A stretch of DNA of 64,000 nucleotides from Rhodanobacter sp. (GTDB lineage Bacteria; Pseudomonadota; Gammaproteobacteria; Xanthomonadales; Rhodanobacteraceae): positions 2,207-66,206 of the forward strand of contig JBARCX010000199.1 of the NCBI GenBank assembly GCA_049794535.1, written 5' to 3'. Positions 22,276 through 29,417 of the stretch are shown piece after piece (the first letter of the stretch is position 1; the number at the start of each line of letters is the position of its first letter). The notes beneath the pieces were generated by a model. That model ran no database searches. It was given only the letters and a program-made list of their open reading frames with translations, and was not told the origin of the DNA. Made by a program: the position numbers and the translations under genes.

Positions 22276-25197
22276 TTACTTGGTATTGCTGAACTTGTAG
22301 GTCGCTTCGAGGAAGAAGCCACGACCGTTGACGTCATAGTTCAACGCGTTGAACGGCTGGCCTTCCGTACCCGGATAACTACGGTCGAGCGGCGGCATCT
22401 TGTTGAAGACGTTGTTGATTTCCAACGAGAGCGCCAGGTTCTTGATTGGGCTATAGCTGACGCTAAGGTTGTAGCGAATCCACGGGCCCAGCTTGCCCGT
22501 ACCCGGTGCGTAGTAGTTGTTGGCGACGGTAGCCAGATAGTTCGGCGAAGAGCCATCACGAAGACCGTAGACCGTCACACCCCAAGCTTGCGTCGGTGAG
22601 AGCCAACCGACCGAACCATCGACCCTGCTCTTGAACTCCGTGCTGTAGTACGGTTCGCGGAGCAAATTGATGAAGGGATCGCCTGGCAGTAGCTGCTGAG
22701 TGTGCTTCAGGATGTCACTCCAGGACGACGCCACCTTGATGGTGCCGTAGTCACCGATACCGTGGGTGTAGTCCACCTGGGTCAGAACGGAGTTCAGATT
22801 CTCACGCGCTACGTTGACCTTCGGTGTGAGGATCTCGGTAATCGGGGCCAGCAGGCCTGGCGCCAACGGAGTGCCCGAACGAATCACCTGAGCCAATGCG
22901 GCCTGGCAGCTCGGCGAGTTGATATCGAAGATGCCCAAACGGCAGTTCGCTTCGGTCTGGGCGAGGAAGTCGGAACTCTGCACCTCAACTTCGTTAGCGA
23001 TGTTGTAGTGGTAGAAATCCGACTTCAAGCTGAAGCCTTCGAACGGTGATATCACGAAGCCGTAGCTAAACACCTTGGCGGTGATCGGCTGCAGCTTTGT
23101 GTTACCCGACTGTTGGCCAAAGAACTGTTCGCCGCTCAGCTGTCCCGGGCAGTTGGCAATATTGCCACCGGTGTAGCCGAGCTTTGCGCAGTTGTAATAA
23201 TCGACCACGCTGCTGTAGTAGCCGCTCGGACCCTGAAACTCATCGGGCAATGTCGGAGCCTTGAAAGCCGTGCCGTACGAACCACGCAGCAACAGAATGT
23301 CGCTAAACGGACGGAATTCGAAACCGAGATTGTAGGTCGGATGGCTCACGGTGCCGTTAGCGACGTTATAACTGTCGTAACGGCCGGACGCGTCCAGCGT
23401 TAGCATCGAGAACAGAGGTGCGTTGAACTCGAGCGTGCCTGCATAGCGCGAGCGGTGGCCTGCGCCTGATACGTCGGTAAAGTCGTAGGTATCGCCGTCG
23501 AGCGTGCGTGGGTCAGGGGAATAGTTCCAGCCTTGGTTACCGCCCTCGAACACCGCTGCCATGCCGGCGTCGCCACCGGGTAGAGAGAATAGTGACGCAT
23601 CGGTGACCTGACCGCGGAGCATGTTGTCCCAGGTCTTGGCGTACGTCTCGGTGTAGCCAGTAAATCCGCGGAACGCTGCATTCGAAACAGGTGTGTAGAA
23701 AGCTGAGTAGTTCGGCTCGTAGGTGTTAACGCCTTGACCATTCGGGTCGGGTCCCAAGCTCGGACCAAGTATGTTGTCGAAATAATTATTGATCTGGGTG
23801 GTCCAGCGCTGGAAGGTGCGCTCCTGTAGGTGATCTTCGGAATGGTTGAAGGTCAGGTCATAGTCCCAGTTCGATTGACCGAAGCTACCCTTCACGCCGA
23901 GTGCCAGCATGAACGAGTTTTCGACGTTGTTATTCATAATGTTCTGGTAACCGCCAGCCTCTTCCGGGCTAAACGCATGCTGCGCAAGCACGTAGTCACC
24001 CGCACCCCCGTTGAGGCGAGGATCGTAGTAAATGGGGCTATCCCAGAACAGGAACTGGGATCCTGACGAGTATTTTTGTTGATCGTAGTTGTAGAGGAAG
24101 TTGCCGTAAAACTGCACATCTTCGTTCAGATCATACGTGGCATGAGTGTAAATGTTCGCCGAATTTTCCTTGTTGGTTTCGGTGACATAACCCGCACTGT
24201 TTTGCGAACCGCAATATTGGCCGTGATTCGCGCGCGTCTGAAGCTGCTCGGTACCGTTGTACTCACCAGTAACGGCTCCGCATCCGATACCCGGATTCAA
24301 CACGTTCGGGCTGTAGTACGCGTTCTCCAATTGTGTTTCGCTTAGCACCAGGTAGTCGCGCGACGCTGTGGCGGGCGTGGTGCCCTGCGTGAAGTAGTGA
24401 CTGGTCAAGCTGCGATCAAAGCCCCAGATCGGTTCAATACTCTCGACCTGGATGCCCGCAATAACGTTGAGCTTGCCGAAGGTGAAACCATCGGCCGCGT
24501 AGACGCGCCGATCGGCACCGCCGCCGCCCGTGCGCCAGCCCAAGCGCGCATCGACGACAGGAGCATCAATGGTTTTCTTCAGCACGATGTTGATAACGCC
24601 CGCGATGGCATCCGAACCATAAAGCGATGATTGACCGCCCGGCAGAATATCGATGTGATCGACCATCTCGATCGGAATGCTGGTCAGGCTATTGAACGCT
24701 TCGCTGCCGTTATATAGCGCAGGGAAATCACCCATCGGCAGGCCATCGATCAGGTACTTGGTGTAGCTGGGATCGAGGCCAAAGAAGCTGAGTGTTTTCG
24801 CACTCTGGGTGAAACCACCCGAGTTATTCGAGCCCTGCACGCTGCCGGTTGCAAATGTACCCGCCTGGAGCGCATCGGCAACGGTGGAAAAGCCGCGATC
24901 CTTCAGCTGCTGAGCCGTGATCGTGATCACCGGCTTGCTCGTTTCAACCTGCACCTGCGGAATTAGCGAACCGGTCACCATGACCGCTGAGAGTTTCTTG
25001 GCTTTGTCAGCTGTTGCGCTGGTGGATTGATCAGAACTTGTCGACTGTGTGGTGTCCTGCGACGGGTTCTGTGGGGCAGTTCCTTGTGTCGATGAGCCCT
25101 GACTGGACACAGTCGGAGTGGTATCGGCATTGACGTTGGCAACAAATACGAGTGATAGCGCAGCCAGAACGGCCGTGGCGATTGGTTTTTTCAGCAT
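22276..25197 (-). CDS. TonB-dependent receptor (about 973 aa), paralog A
   Basis: Signal peptide MLKKPIATAVLAALSLVFVANVNA. KKLSAVMVTGSLIP plug region, YGSDAIAGVINIV, C-terminal barrel strand ..EATYKF followed by SNTK. Confidence 0.9.
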   Translation of the reverse strand: MLKKPIATAVLAALSLVFVANVNADTTPTVSSQGSSTQGTAPQNPSQDTTQSTSSDQSTSATADKAKKLSAVMVTGSLIPQVQVETSKPVITITAQQLKDRGFSTVADALQAGTFATGSVQGSNNSGGFTQSAKTLSFFGLDPSYTKYLIDGLPMGDFPALYNGSEAFNSLTSIPIEMVDHIDILPGGQSSLYGSDAIAGVINIVLKKTIDAPVVDARLGWRTGGGGADRRVYAADGFTFGKLNVIAGIQVESIEPIWGFDRSLTSHYFTQGTTPATASRDYLVLSETQLENAYYSPNVLNPGIGCGAVTGEYNGTEQLQTRANHGQYCGSQNSAGYVTETNKENSANIYTHATYDLNEDVQFYGNFLYNYDQQKYSSGSQFLFWDSPIYYDPRLNGGAGDYVLAQHAFSPEEAGGYQNIMNNNVENSFMLALGVKGSFGQSNWDYDLTFNHSEDHLQERTFQRWTTQINNYFDNILGPSLGPDPNGQGVNTYEPNYSAFYTPVSNAAFRGFTGYTETYAKTWDNMLRGQVTDASLFSLPGGDAGMAAVFEGGNQGWNYSPDPRTLDGDTYDFTDVSGAGHRSRYAGTLEFNAPLFSMLTLDASGRYDSYNVANGTVSHPTYNLGFEFRPFSDILLLRGSYGTAFKAPTLPDEFQGPSGYYSSVVDYYNCAKLGYTGGNIANCPGQLSGEQFFGQQSGNTKLQPITAKVFSYGFVISPFEGFSLKSDFYHYNIANEVEVQSSDFLAQTEANCRLGIFDINSPSCQAALAQVIRSGTPLAPGLLAPITEILTPKVNVARENLNSVLTQVDYTHGIGDYGTIKVASSWSDILKHTQQLLPGDPFINLLREPYYSTEFKSRVDGSVGWLSPTQAWGVTVYGLRDGSSPNYLATVANNYYAPGTGKLGPWIRYNLSVSYSPIKNLALSLEINNVFNKMPPLDRSYPGTEGQPFNALNYDVNGRGFFLEATYKFSNTK

Positions 25198-25378
25198 GAG
25201 AGGCTCCCTCGGCCTGATTCGTAGCAAATTGTTTTAACAACTTATTTTGGTAAGGGGAGCCTGGAATTCGGCACAAAAACCCCTGATCCACCGCCCAGGA
25301 CGGTAGATAGGAAGGTCGATTTGGTACTCCCCTGCCCTCGCAGACCTGACTTTTTTCTCAAAACGTCAGGTTTAATTA
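25198..25378 (-). promoter_or_regulatory. candidate structured 5' leader of TBDR paralog A (SD-mimic / anti-SD / SD)
   Basis: On the minus-strand RNA, AGGGGAG (plus 25323..25333) and the SD GGGAGCC (plus 25202..25210) are both complementary to GGCUCCCCU (plus 25252..25261). A 5' hairpin ACCUGAC/GUCAGGU and an internal G-rich arm plus U-run are also present. Confidence 0.45.
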
Positions 25379-25384
25379 AATCTA

Positions 25385-25413
25385 TATTTACTAAAGATGA
25401 AACTTTTGTGCAA
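25385..25413 (-). promoter_or_regulatory. sigma70-type promoter of TBDR paralog A
   Basis: The minus strand reads TTGCAC-17 nt-TAAATA. It is embedded in a 42-nt block (25382..25423) that is 41/42 identical to 28887..28928. Confidence 0.55.
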
Positions 25414-25758
25414 ATGACTTTCGTGAGGTATTAATCGAAAAATATTGCTTATTCGCAAGATAAGCTCTGGTGGCATAGCTATATCTTGCGGCTCGTTCCC
25501 GCAAGTGGCTGTAGCAAATTAATTATTTAAACAAATGGGGAAATGGTATGTGCACTGATATCGCATTAAATTGCGATTCAATGACTTCAAAATGTTGCTC
25601 TTGGGGATGTGCGCCCACTGCGAAAGGGGACGAGTGAGACCTGGCTGTTTGACGCCAACATCTTCGTCGCAGCAGTGCATGGGGCCATACGTCGCACAGC
25701 ACAATGCTCGACGTCGGCATGCACGCTTCGCTTCGGCGCGCGCAAATCAATAGGCCAT

Positions 25759-25790
25759 AAAAAAAACCGGGCCCTTATGGGCCCGGTTTT
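25759..25790 (-). terminator. intrinsic terminator of TBDR paralog B
   Basis: ccgggccc-ttat-gggcccgg stem. A long U-run follows on the minus strand (A8 on plus at 25759..25766). Confidence 0.85.
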
Positions 25791-25822
25791 GTCTTACAAC
25801 ACCGTCTTGCTATGGACTGCTA

Positions 25823-28708
25823 TCAGTTGGTCTTGCCGCCGAAGCGCAAGGTTGCCTGGAGCATGATTTCACGTCCGTAGATGTTGTAGTTGCCTACATT
25901 GAAGTACGGATAAGCCGTGTTGGTTGGGTCGTTCGGTGGCATCTTGTTGAACACGTTGTCGGCCAGCAGCGACAGGTCGAGGTTGGGTACCGGCGTGTAG
26001 GTCAGGCTGTAGTTGAAGGTGTTCCATGCACCGACCTTGCCTGCGCCAGCGATGTTGTAGCCTTCCTCATAAGCCGTGTAGTTCGGCGACGGCCCATAGC
26101 GGTGCCAGAACACGGTGCTGCTCCATTGGTCATGGAACGACCAGGTGATGGCGCCGGAGACGATGCTCTTGAACTCCTGGCTGTAGAGCGGGTTGGTCAA
26201 CTGGTTGATCGGGGTTGTGCCCGGAACCAGTTGGTACGCATGCTTCAGCATGTCGTTGTAGTCAAGCTGCACATTGAACTGACCGATACGTGTTGTCGGG
26301 AACGTGTACTTGGCCTGCGCGGTGATCGAGTTGGTTTCCTCGTTGGCAAGGTTCACGAAGTACGTCTGGATGCCCGTGAGAGCGCCCGATGAATCGCGCT
26401 GAACTTGTCCCAAGGTCTGCTGGCATAGCGCTGAAGTCGCGCTCAGGCTACCGAGCAAGCATTGCGAGTCGATCTTAAGCAAGGTGGGAATGTCCTGCTG
26501 CACCACCTCGTTCGCAATCGAGATATGCAGGTAATCGACGCTGAGGCTCAGGTTCTCGATCGGGGCCCATACCGTACCCGCCGTCCAGCTCTTGGCTGTC
26601 GTCGGCTGCAATTGGGGATTGGACAGGGTCTTGCCTGTGACGTTGACCGAATAGGCTGGCGCGTTGCAATTGTTACTGTGTGCGAGGGCGCACTGGTAAG
26701 GATCCTGAACCGTTTCATAAAAACCGCTTGGCCCAAGGAACAGTGCGGCCATATCCGGGGCACGGAACGCCGTAGCGTAGTTGCCGCGGATCAGCCAGTT
26801 GTCGAACGGACGATATTCGACACCGAGCTTGTAAGTGAATCGGTGATTGGTGCCGCCATCGGTCTTGTAGTGGTCATAACGACCGGACAGATCGAAAGTG
26901 AGTTGCTTAAAGACCGGCAAATTCAACTCTGCAGCTGATGCCTGATGATCACGCGTGCCGCCGCCGGAGGTGGCCGTCTGCTGCCACACCTGGCCACTGC
27001 TGAGCAACGGATTGACGGGCTCATACCATGCCTCGTTACCGCCTTCGATCAAGCCGGCGAAACCGGCATCACCGCCCGGCAAAGTGAACAGGCTGTTGTT
27101 GCTGATGGTGGCGCGAGTGTTATTGAGCCAGGTATTCGATACACCGCTGATGTTCTGCGTGAAGCTGGAGAATGCCGCAGGCGAGATCGGTTGATACAGC
27201 GCGTTGTAGTTGACGTTGTAGATGTTGTAACCGGTCGTCGGATCTTGGCCGAGCGATTTGCCACCCAGAACGTTGTTCACGAAATACGCATCCATCGGAG
27301 CGGCCATGCGCGAAGGGGTGCTGGTCGTGGTTTTATCACCGGAGCGCAGATAGTAGATATCCCAGTCCCAGTTCGAACCACCAAACTGGCCATTGGCGCC
27401 GAAGTCGACCTGATACATCAGGTCATCCTGGCGTTCAAGCTGGCTGGTATAGCCGCCGGGCATTTCTTCCGGTGCGAAAATATGTTGTGGAGTCACCACG
27501 TGGCCGGTGTTGGAATCCACGATGAAGCTGCCCTGGTCGGCCGTGTTCCAGAAGTTGAACCCCGAGCCCGAGGTGAATTTCTGCTGCTGCCAGTCCAGCA
27601 GCACATCGCTGTACAGGCGCACGTTATCGCTCAGGTCGTACTTCAGCTTCAGCATGCCATCGTAGCTGCGCGACTGATTGATAAACGTCGTGTAGCCATC
27701 CACATTGGGCGAGCCGCAGAACTGACCTGGCGGGCTCGGTGGAGTGGCATTAGCGAGGTAAGTACTGCCCCTGAACAGGCCGCCGATAGCGGCGCAATTG
27801 GCTGACGTGGGATTGATGTTGCCTTGCAGTAGGGTGTTGAAGTTAGCGGGTGTACCGTAATCCAGAACACCTGTAACGAATTCGGCGCCATTCAGGCCGT
27901 TCGGGTTGCCAGAGGAGCCGTTAGTCAGCGAACGCTGATAACCCCATAGTGGCGAGGAATTGTCGAATTCCATGGCGGCCAGCACGCTGAGCTTGCCGAA
28001 GTCGTGACCGTAACCTGCGGTAATGCGCTGGTTTGCACCGCCACCGCCGTCATAATTACCCGTGCGTACCGAGACCTCGCCGCCATCCATGTGCTGCTTG
28101 GTGACGATGTTGACTACGCCAGCAATCGCGCTGGAGCCGTAGATCGAGGAGCCACCGCCGGGCATCACGTCGATATGATCGATCAGCGAGACCGGGATGT
28201 TCGAGATGTTGTTGAAGTTGCTCTGGCCGTTGTACAGCTGGCCGAAGTTGGTGATCGGCTTGCCATCGATCAACAGCAAGGTGAATTCAGGGCTGAGGCC
28301 ATAAAGGCTGACCGTCTGTGCGCCCTGGGTGAAGCCGCCACTCTGCTGCGGTCCCTGCACCGAGCCGGTGGCCTGCACCGCGCTCTGCAGTACTTCAGTC
28401 ACGCTGTTGAAGCCGCGCGCCTTAATGTCAGCAGCGGTAATCGTGTAGGTAGGCGTAGCGGTCTGGATTTGCGCGTTGTTGATCAGCGAGCCGCTGACGA
28501 CAACGGTACTGAGCTTCTTGGCTTTCGCGTCTTCGGAGCTAGTGGCTTGGCTGCTGTCCTGCGACTGATCCGGGCCTTGGCTGGAGGAAGTCTGGTCAGA
28601 GGGGCTCTGAATGGATGCATCCGGAAATACGGTAGCGGCTTGTGTGCTGGCGATGAAGCCAAACGACAAAGCAGCCAGGACGGCTGCAGCAATAGGTGTC
28701 TTGAGCAT
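25823..28708 (-). CDS. TonB-dependent receptor (about 961 aa), paralog B
   Basis: Signal peptide MLKTPIAAAVLAALSFGFIASTQA, similar to paralog A. KKLSTVVVSGSLI plug region, YGSSAIAGVVNIVT, C-terminal barrel strand ..QATLRF followed by GGKTN. The 70-aa upstream ORF extension is rejected. Confidence 0.9.
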   Translation of the reverse strand: MLKTPIAAAVLAALSFGFIASTQAATVFPDASIQSPSDQTSSSQGPDQSQDSSQATSSEDAKAKKLSTVVVSGSLINNAQIQTATPTYTITAADIKARGFNSVTEVLQSAVQATGSVQGPQQSGGFTQGAQTVSLYGLSPEFTLLLIDGKPITNFGQLYNGQSNFNNISNIPVSLIDHIDVMPGGGSSIYGSSAIAGVVNIVTKQHMDGGEVSVRTGNYDGGGGANQRITAGYGHDFGKLSVLAAMEFDNSSPLWGYQRSLTNGSSGNPNGLNGAEFVTGVLDYGTPANFNTLLQGNINPTSANCAAIGGLFRGSTYLANATPPSPPGQFCGSPNVDGYTTFINQSRSYDGMLKLKYDLSDNVRLYSDVLLDWQQQKFTSGSGFNFWNTADQGSFIVDSNTGHVVTPQHIFAPEEMPGGYTSQLERQDDLMYQVDFGANGQFGGSNWDWDIYYLRSGDKTTTSTPSRMAAPMDAYFVNNVLGGKSLGQDPTTGYNIYNVNYNALYQPISPAAFSSFTQNISGVSNTWLNNTRATISNNSLFTLPGGDAGFAGLIEGGNEAWYEPVNPLLSSGQVWQQTATSGGGTRDHQASAAELNLPVFKQLTFDLSGRYDHYKTDGGTNHRFTYKLGVEYRPFDNWLIRGNYATAFRAPDMAALFLGPSGFYETVQDPYQCALAHSNNCNAPAYSVNVTGKTLSNPQLQPTTAKSWTAGTVWAPIENLSLSVDYLHISIANEVVQQDIPTLLKIDSQCLLGSLSATSALCQQTLGQVQRDSSGALTGIQTYFVNLANEETNSITAQAKYTFPTTRIGQFNVQLDYNDMLKHAYQLVPGTTPINQLTNPLYSQEFKSIVSGAITWSFHDQWSSTVFWHRYGPSPNYTAYEEGYNIAGAGKVGAWNTFNYSLTYTPVPNLDLSLLADNVFNKMPPNDPTNTAYPYFNVGNYNIYGREIMLQATLRFGGKTN

Positions 28709-28883
28709 CGGAGGCCCCCTTGGCCTTTGTTCGAAAAGATGTTGCAAGGGGAGCCAATAACTGGACGCAAAAATACCCCAATCCGCCGTTCTGATAACGG
28801 CAGTGAATATATTGGGTCGAGCTGGTATTCCCCTACCGTTCGCGAATTGGTTGTCTCTTTTGAAAAACACCATATCCGCGTTA
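28709..28883 (-). promoter_or_regulatory. candidate structured 5' leader of TBDR paralog B (SD-mimic / anti-SD / SD)
   Basis: Minus-strand RNA: AGGGGAAUACC (plus 28824..28834), GGCUCCCCUUG (plus 28745..28755) and SD AAGGGGGCC (plus 28713..28721). Also an internal hairpin ACCCAAU..[GCCGUU-AUCAG-AACGGC]..AUUGGGGU followed by AUUUUUG. Confidence 0.45.
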
Positions 28884-28889
28884 AAACTA

Positions 28890-28918
28890 TATTTACTCAA
28901 GATGAAACTTTTGTGCAA
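28890..28918 (-). promoter_or_regulatory. sigma70-type promoter of TBDR paralog B
   Basis: The minus strand reads TTGCAC-17 nt-TAAATA. An imperfect inverted repeat GAAAGT-N12-AGTTTC spans the -35. Confidence 0.55.
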
Positions 28919-29417
28919 ATGACTTTCGGCACATAATCAGCGAAAGTTATTGCTGCATGCAGATGCATAGCTTACTTGTGGCTTGCATATAACTTGCTTG
29001 TGGCTTGCTAGGCATTGTGTAAGCTTGGTTTTGCGCACGTAAGTCATTGAGCTAATGTTTTTCTTCCGTGTAATCCATTATGCGATCCATCATTAAGATT
29101 CGCATTTACTTTCGCCTCGTTAATTTCAAAGAATGCGTTAAGTAAAGGCACGATGACCGAGCTGATTTTTCCAGCATCAAGGCTGTTATGCGCTGCTGGC
29201 ACGCGAGCCCAGTGGGGATTGGCGATCAGGAGCAGGCTCGAGAGGTCGGTGAGGCGAGATCGGAGTCAGTGCGGCACGCACTAAGATATCGAACGGCCTC
29301 TTGCGAGGCTGGCGCTCTGTATGTGTGTGCTGTGAAGAGCTTGCGCGCAGCTTCAAGTGCCGACGCCGGTGCAATGCACATCGACGTCCGCATAACTGGC
29401 CGCGTGTGGCTAGCGCC

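Follow-up and report, generated by a model that had tools for sequence, protein, structure and literature searches.

Two genes for TonB-dependent receptors (TBDRs), here called A and B, are located on the minus strand of a 64,000-nt stretch of DNA (hereafter the window; positions 2,207 to 66,206 of contig JBARCX010000199.1) from a member of the Rhodanobacteraceae. Each is preceded by a leader that we interpret as a structured 5' untranslated region (UTR) with a cis-acting anti-Shine-Dalgarno (anti-SD) element, a C-rich box of the sequence GGCUCCCCUU (C-box). According to our proposal, a helix between the C-box and the ribosome-binding site would switch TBDR translation off, while pairing of the C-box with an upstream SD-like G-box (AGGGGAG or AGGGGAA, the SD mimic) would leave the SD free, or held in a small local hairpin, and translation would be on. 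The two states are predicted to be nearly isoenergetic, so that a factor occupying one of the G-boxes would tip the balance; plausible factors are a homologue of the small RNA sX13, as the likeliest one, and the protein RsmA as second candidate. This complete scenario, in which the C-box sequesters the SD, pairing with the mimic relieves the block and sX13 or RsmA plausibly sets the balance, is put forward tentatively, as a reading whose chances we place somewhat below even. The element itself is real and probably functional, and is best viewed as a cis anti-SD module that one lineage has added to a family of TBDR leaders rich in G-boxes. It is not a new riboswitch class, and no new principle is involved.

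Leader A (25383..25198, minus strand) and leader B (28883..28709, minus strand) end directly before their respective genes and share the same succession of parts, all read on the minus strand. The three elements that an earlier note on this DNA had singled out in both leaders were all found. Close to the 5' end lies a hairpin, P1, which in the minimum free energy (MFE) fold of leader A consists of CCUGAC/GUCAGG with an inner UUUU/AAAA stem (25345..25370), and in leader B of CGCGGAU/AUUCGCG (28841..28880). As claimed earlier for these hairpins, their sequences are unrelated between A and B, while position and size are kept in the MFE folds; P1 of leader B is homologous to the CGCGAAU..AUUCGCG hairpin of B-type leaders from Dyella (L004, L005 and L097). 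The next part, the G1 block, is AGGGGAGUACCAAAUCGACC in leader A (25314..25333), where it includes the SD mimic AGGGGAG (25333..25327) and pairs with the C-box in the MFE fold, and AGGGGAAUACCAGCUCGACC in leader B (28815..28834), where a 4-bp hairpin, GGUA[GGGGAA]UACC, is predicted to place the G-box in a hexaloop. The motif AGGGGA(G/A)UACCA..UCGACC is indeed conserved in both.

A central hairpin, P2, follows. In leader A it is formed by GACC..CCUAUCUACCGUC and GGCGGUGGAU.AGG..GGUU (25272..25317 including a U-run); the hairpin proper (25317..25278) terminates in CAGGGG (25285..25280), after which comes UUUUUGUG (25279..25272). The corresponding fold in leader B pairs ACCCAAU..CUGCCGUU with AACGGCGG..AUUGGGGU (28766..28817 including the U-run), and its hairpin (28817..28775) terminates in UGGGGU followed by AUUUUUGCG. 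Two GGGG boxes, G1 and G2, are thus present in both leaders. The C-box is located at 25252..25261 in leader A and at 28746..28755 in leader B. It is followed by the SD, which is GAGGGAGCC in leader A (25210..25202; longest G run of 3), separated by a pyrimidine spacer (CUCUC) from the AUG at 25197, and AAGGGGGCC in leader B (28721..28713), a box of five Gs without GGA, 8 nt ahead of the AUG at 28708 and with UCCG as spacer.

The complementarities that gave rise to the idea of a switch were confirmed. In leader A, C-box and SD can form eight perfect pairs (AGGCUCCC/GGGAGCCU), comprising the GGCUCCC pairing noted before; the bulged pairing foreseen for leader B appears in its MFE fold, in which GGC.UCCCCUU pairs with the SD region. 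On the other side, CUCCCCU is the exact complement of AGGGGAG in leader A and matches AGGGGAA of leader B at 6 of 7 positions. Against 1000 dinucleotide shuffles, the maximal run of upstream complementarity to the SD window, 8 nt long in leader A and 7 nt in leader B, had P values of 0.023 and 0.082, respectively, and the MFE z-scores against shuffles were -2.45 (A) and -3.10 (B). Constrained folding of leader A gave -61.9 kcal/mol for the C-box:SD state and -62.5 kcal/mol for the G1:C-box state; for leader B the values were -61.2 and -59.3 kcal/mol, respectively. The alternative pairings of the C-box with SD or mimic, as postulated in the earlier note, are therefore predicted to lie only 0.6 and 1.9 kcal/mol apart, and barring the C-box from pairing costs 7-9 kcal/mol.

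In the predicted ensemble of leader A, the C-box is divided between SD and G1 (summed pair probabilities of 4.5 and 2.8; duplex energies of -17.1 kcal/mol with the SD and -18.1 kcal/mol with G1), and the SD has a mean unpaired probability of 0.23. The C-box of leader B strongly favours the SD (summed pair probability of 7.95 versus 0.47 with G1), and the fraction of its SD window that is paired to upstream sequence amounts to 0.81 versus 0.42 in shuffles (a value of 0.81 being reached by 2 of 30 shuffles). By these models a three-element switch is thermodynamically plausible, and we infer that C-box:SD pairing would limit translation.

Conservation between the two copies lends the boxes further weight. 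The encoded proteins are 42% identical, and the fourfold-degenerate sites of the two genes agree at 44% (30% expected by chance), meaning that neutral sites are near saturation. Against this background, the C-box is identical at 10 of 10 positions and a promoter block in front of each leader at 41 of 42; the G1 and SD blocks are conserved as well, whereas the intervening stretches cannot be aligned, are of unequal length and contain indels. Such conserved islands amid indels and near-saturated neutral sites fit better with purifying selection than with long conversion tracts, and from the sequences the leader boxes look selected.

Orthologues of the two receptors allowed us to place the leaders in a wider family. 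The source genome (59% G+C, 434 contigs) is the sole representative of its own genus among the genomes compared, and protein-guided searches showed that Dyella and Rhodanobacter hold the nearest relatives of the window genes. From upstream of Dyella and metagenome orthologues we collected 20 further distinct leaders (hereafter the Dyella leaders) of 160-235 nt, which are homologous to the window leaders by position and promoter block, and partly by sequence. They contain 31-36% G and 17-27% C, and G-rich boxes are common to them (CUAGGGGA, CUGGGGAA, GAGGGAG and AGGGAAGG, one of which serves as the SD), whereas the C-rich box occurs only in the window leaders. Over all 22 leaders, GGG was counted 188 times (131 expected) and CCC 18 times (38.6 expected); in the Dyella leaders the G-boxes stay exposed. 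For the best-sampled Dyella subgroup we obtained a consensus fold with covariation: P1 carries CUAGGGGA in its loop region, and a long-range helix Pa (CGYYGU/GCGGCG) and the hairpins P2 and P3 are found in addition. In the leaders termed type I, the covariation-supported P3 has a hexaloop with an invariant GGA, (A/U/C)NGGA(A/G), some 36 nt before the SD box. The structured family comprises L006, L008, L017, L041, L042, L088 and L091-L093, located some 170 nt before the TBDR start, with compensatory changes in several pairs; L012, L037 and L097 are weaker members. As no Rfam family covers the Dyella TBDR leaders, these findings point to an undescribed family of conserved structured RNAs.

A covariance model, R1, was built from the core of the Dyella leaders (helices Pa, P2 and P3). 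It scored type I leaders of the training set with 87-101 bits and leaders outside this set (L037, L097, L012 and L039) with 25-31 bits. In L039 (Dyella psychrodurans), at about 1200-1290, there is what could be the relic of a B-type leader end (..GGCUGAGAGGGAGCC..), fused upstream of an A-type leader at a locus without gene B; R1 matches this relic with 25.5 bits, and going by the sequence, gene B seems to have been lost there with part of its leader remaining. A joint alignment places the C-box of the window over GUCCGCGGAAC, which forms the 3' arm of P3 in Dyella, and the U-run over GUUUGCGGCG, which does so for helix Pa. Judging from this alignment and the R1 results, we regard the window leaders as belonging to a leader family that evolves fast, and as strongly diverged within it.

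The search for a partner in trans was directed at sX13 because the window leaders have an excess of G-runs, not of GGA: GGG occurs 7 times versus 3.0 (A) and 2.6 (B) expected (P = 0.04 and 0.01), and GGGG 2 (A) and 4 (B) times versus 0.7 and 0.6 expected. In Xanthomonas, sX13 is a small RNA (sRNA) that has three C-rich loops and, independently of Hfq, represses mRNAs with GGGG motifs near the start codon. It is always encoded downstream of polA, its 2013 description confined it to the Xanthomonadaceae, and Schmidtke et al. envisaged targets with multiple 4G motifs each and the engagement of several loops (PMC3771888). We found a homologue outside the window (G000:C342:3198-3311, minus strand), 284-397 nt downstream of the polA stop codon, which scores 47.6 bits with RF02232 (gathering score 50; E = 5e-7), and further copies with invariant loops in 13 of 13 Dyella genomes examined (loci L104-L116). 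Its loops read CACCUCCCUG, CUCUCCCCUGG and ACUCCCCCUAAG, and the heptamer CUCCCCU is common to loop 2 and the cis C-box. Within G1 of leader A, CAGGGGAG is a perfect 8-nt complement of loop 2 (CUCCCCUG), and loop 3 is complementary over 6 nt to AGGGGG in the SD of leader B. Duplexes of the sX13 loops with G1 and SD are predicted at -7.9 to -18.0 kcal/mol (best loop per box, -12.1 to -18.0 kcal/mol), comparable with the range for the cis C-box, -11.9 to -19.3 kcal/mol. On these complementarities, sX13 is a lead as regulator of the two leaders; that any trans factor acts on them is something we infer.

The window leaders resemble the known sX13 targets of Xanthomonas campestris pv. vesicatoria (Xcv) in several respects (PMC3771888, RF02232). 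Both belong to the Xanthomonadales with a polA-linked sX13 of three C-rich loops, and the GGGG and GGGGG boxes of the window, located at and upstream of the ribosome-binding site, are complementary to these loops. They differ in that the window leaders add a cis copy of CUCCCCU, which has not been described for sX13 targets; in that the SD of leader A offers only GGG; and in that the link in the window is a prediction from sequence.

Several observations speak against the proposed C-box switch or its connection to sX13. In leader A, pairing of the SD to upstream sequence (0.46) is not above that of shuffles (0.52), and the predicted "on" fold of this leader still closes the SD into a small hairpin with CUCUC, which lies downstream. 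Being homologous, the two copies do not count as independent observations; the C-box is invariant between them, and the change from A to G in the SD merely turns a U-A into a U.G pair. With two homologous sequences and an invariant C-box, compensatory change is not scorable and covariation analysis cannot be run. A pyrimidine box like GGCUCCCCUU is found in 0 of the 20 Dyella leaders, whose longest anti-SD complement is 4-6 nt (P of 0.18-1.0), often below shuffles, without masking of the SD; in seven of them, the SD is paired to upstream sequence far less than in shuffles (0.07-0.26 versus 0.40-0.59). A cmsearch of the window with R1, run with filters off at E <= 10, left the window leaders unmatched, and the architecture was absent from every relative reached. 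As to sX13, cofolding with the leaders did not differ significantly from shuffles (z of about -0.8), in a calculation that cannot model loop-loop kissing, and the leaders are no genome-wide outliers in the density of loop-complementary 6-mers. Moreover, deletion of sX13 in Xcv lowers, rather than raises, the two TonB-dependent receptors of its regulon (PMC3771888), opposite to the response expected here. A conserved riboregulator is not supported by the homologous leaders collected; going by the sequence comparisons, the anti-SD layout is an innovation of the window lineage.

Searches for further copies were equally confined in their outcome. A DNA search of the genome itself and 60 relatives yielded no leader copy beyond the two, and a pattern search for the G1 block in 400 family genomes, with 2 mismatches allowed, returned noise and coding matches only. 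Recurrent AGGGGAATACCATGTCGA matches had raised the idea of G1 being a fossil SD with start codon, which was rejected, as two of three examples are intragenic and the third starts an unrelated small protein. Protein-guided genome and metagenome searches reached relatives of up to 87% (A) and 72% (B) identity, all lacking a window-type leader. When all genomes were scanned for the pattern of C-box and SD, the matches listed were chance occurrences in high-GC genomes. Across the source genome, a C-box with G-rich SD before long open reading frames (ORFs) was counted 10 times versus 7-10 for control hexamers, which is no enrichment; GGCUCCC was carried in this search by the two TBDR genes only.

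Control could be exerted in trans only, with G1, G2 and SD binding the C-rich loops of sX13 and the C-box being incidental, a leftover of the ancestral 3' arm of P3. The synteny and invariance of sX13, the 8-nt match of leader A to loop 2 and the alignment of the C-box with the P3 arm all agree with this, and so do the enrichment of G-runs and depletion of C-runs over the 22 leaders, as if the G-boxes were kept accessible to a trans partner. In addition, the Dyella boxes CUAGGGGAA can be matched to loop 3 (UUCCCCCUAAA) at either flank when one bulge is allowed. However, full conservation of the C-box next to near-saturated neutral sites makes an incidental status unlikely, the cofold and genome-wide tests gave no significant signal, and some conserved loop boxes of Dyella have only GG (CACGGAAGG, CAGGAAGG) and would be unable to pair with a loop of four Cs. 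We consider control in trans alone unlikely.

Another possibility is that there is no switch: the structured 5' UTR would mainly stabilise an abundant mRNA, and C-box:SD pairing would set a constitutively low translation. The 5' UTR of ompA is known for its stabiliser hairpin, and the window leaders likewise belong to mRNAs of outer-membrane proteins, are long, and have a stable hairpin a few nucleotides from the deduced start whose structure is kept. This 5'-proximal hairpin is the sole structural feature in all homologous leaders, with its sequence swapped between A and B and covarying in Dyella, and a fast leader turnover with no ligand-like conserved core would suit such a role. Yet the layer of C-box and G-boxes is outside the ompA paradigm: stability alone does not need two near-isoenergetic pairings of a perfectly conserved box, and the Dyella homologues manage without masking of the SD. 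This alternative, too, appears rather unlikely to us.

RsmA (CsrA) was the other explanation considered in the earlier note. A dimer bound to GGA in hairpin loops and at the SD would block translation or stabilise the mRNA, as in leaders of the type of E. coli glgC and pgaA. Part of this idea stood up. The genome has one csrA gene (PF02599, 89.5 bits), the window leaders have several G-rich boxes, including some in hairpin loops and one located at the SD, G1 of leader B is presented in the hexaloop described above, and the GGA in the SD of leader A can occupy a predicted loop, AGGC[CGAGGGA]GCCU. The Dyella relatives have the covarying type I hairpin with its GGA hexaloop, and GGA is enriched over the whole leader family (123 versus 86 expected). 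RsmA is known to act on 5' UTRs in Xanthomonas, e.g. that of hrpG (PMC3937308). In the window leaders themselves, however, GGA is not enriched (3 versus 3.2 expected in A and 2.9 in B) and is lacking in the SD of leader B, over 110 nt separate G1 from the SD, the boxes have the form GGGGA instead of A(N)GGA, and the conserved C-box would be left without a role. RsmA as the explanation is weaker than the sX13 lead and, taken by itself, quite improbable.

That the leaders look like attenuators had also been remarked before. Most transcripts would terminate about 110 nt after the start, thereby either gating read-through or freeing a leader-derived sRNA with a G-seed that titrates sX13. What stood is the hairpin ending in GGGG and followed by U5 in both leaders, in a stretch conserved between A and B; type II leaders of Dyella also have a hairpin followed by UUUUCAUUU. 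A terminator scan, on the other hand, flagged only a weak terminator-like match in A, a 6-bp sub-stem (25300..25281), and nothing in B. The U-run of A is itself predicted to pair with the upstream CAAA and GUAC, in the alignment with Dyella it coincides with the 3' arm of Pa, a U-run is missing from type I leaders, and an antiterminator partner is not evident in the leaders. We therefore hold attenuation to be very improbable.

Anti-SD helices masking the ribosome-binding site are characteristic of riboswitch expression platforms and of the ROSE and fourU thermometers. Like these, the window leaders have an anti-SD helix, together with an upstream competitor able to free the SD, but they contain no aptamer or known class and are confined to one genome, and their G-C-rich helices (8 bp) differ from the weak pairs of thermometers. 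The cmscan of both leaders that had been suggested, performed with Rfam 15 on 24900..29300 at E <= 10, matched neither leader in RNA orientation; a RAGATH-34 match (E = 8.7) overlapping a leader is on the opposite strand and was dismissed as noise, and in the whole window tRNA alone passed the gathering threshold. A metabolite riboswitch of a class not yet described, whose expression platform would be the C-box/SD helix, is hardly credible, since, for all the resemblance of layout, the lack of an Rfam match and the frequency with which TBDR genes are riboswitch targets (B12, TPP), the rapid turnover among orthologues, whose Dyella leaders differ almost wholly and whose model R1 misses the window leaders, argues against a metabolite-binding aptamer, the conserved parts are short G- and C-rich boxes instead of junctions, pockets or an aptamer-like core, and the element occurs twice in one genome only.

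Leader peptides were considered and rejected. Two ORFs on the minus strand, 25031..25291 (86 aa) and 28483..28770 (95 aa), begin within the leaders and cross the C-box in different frames (the frames open across it read GSPY and APLA), and both run out of frame over the TBDR start. There is no start codon behind G1 in either leader, and no PP arrest motif. A pyrimidine-rich segment in front of a TBDR gene that can pair with the SD is also a feature of the CutF/CruR arrest-peptide leaders, from which the window leaders differ by lacking a small conserved ORF that ends at the anti-SD.

The promoter blocks mentioned above lie at 25382..25425 (gene A) and 28887..28930 (gene B), both on the minus strand. 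That of gene A has a -35 element TTGCAC (25413..25408), a 17-nt spacer and a -10 element TAAATA (25390..25385); in gene B the same hexamers occupy 28918..28913 and 28895..28890. The sequence shared by the two blocks is CGAAAGUCAUUUGCACAAAAGUUUCAUCUU(U/G)AGUAAAUAUAG, with 2 occurrences in the whole genome, and a block of the form ATTTGCnnAA..TTGTAAAyAT is also present upstream of the Dyella TBDR orthologues. A strict sigma-70 consensus scan did not flag the promoter blocks, and a sigma-54 reading of TTGCAC-N5-TTTC was rejected, as this sequence lacks the GG and GC dinucleotides. From their sequence, the leaders would be transcribed from this conserved promoter; a start deduced from the promoter alone, about 7 nt after the block, results in leaders of about 180-186 nt. 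In Dyella, the block takes the form ATTTGCA-N17-TGTAAAT; this inverted repeat is imperfect and could serve as an operator that overlaps the -35 and -10 elements.

TBDR gene A (22276..25197, minus strand; AUG 25197..25195) encodes a protein of 973 aa and TBDR gene B (25823..28708, minus strand; AUG 28708..28706) one of 961 aa; both are generic Plug and barrel proteins, and neither was assigned to a subfamily. A terminator scan detected a strong intrinsic terminator of gene B at 25763..25790 (minus strand; 12-bp stem and U8), and because it closes this gene, A and B are taken as separate transcription units. The pair is flanked upstream by genes for an intracellular PHB depolymerase and a methyltransferase and downstream by msrA; no regulator, TonB/ExbBD or catabolic gene adjoins it. 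Gene A of the window and that of Dyella lipolytica (L037) start with MLK(K/T)PIA and have an SD of the form GAGGG(A)GCC, resembling gene B, while other gene A orthologues (L038-L043 and L048) start with MLKSKLA and have the SD CUAGGGGAAUUC. This sequence pattern suggests that 5' ends have been swapped between the TBDR paralogues (25100..25197 in the window, and L037).

Returning to the C-box scenario, the leaders probably represent a lineage-specific translational brake tied to the logic of G-rich boxes and a C-rich sRNA (sX13) in the Xanthomonadales. A more specific version, distinctly unlikely in our judgement, is that the C-box reproduces the sX13 loop motif in cis; C-box and sX13 would then enter a three-way competition for mimic and SD, with the sX13 level deciding between on and off. 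If so, sX13 would displace the C-box from the mimic onto the SD and translation would be off; conversely, the G-box-bearing 5' part of the leader, when abundant, could titrate sX13. Such a device would connect, in a new way, a C-rich sRNA of global reach with a bistable leader that is specific to one gene. The findings extend sX13 beyond the Xanthomonadaceae, to the window genome and the Dyella genomes searched, and provide candidate targets. If the model of a cis anti-SD box is true, a G-box-rich leader family would have gained a self-masking box in one lineage and thereby moved from control in trans only to a bistable combination of cis and trans control.

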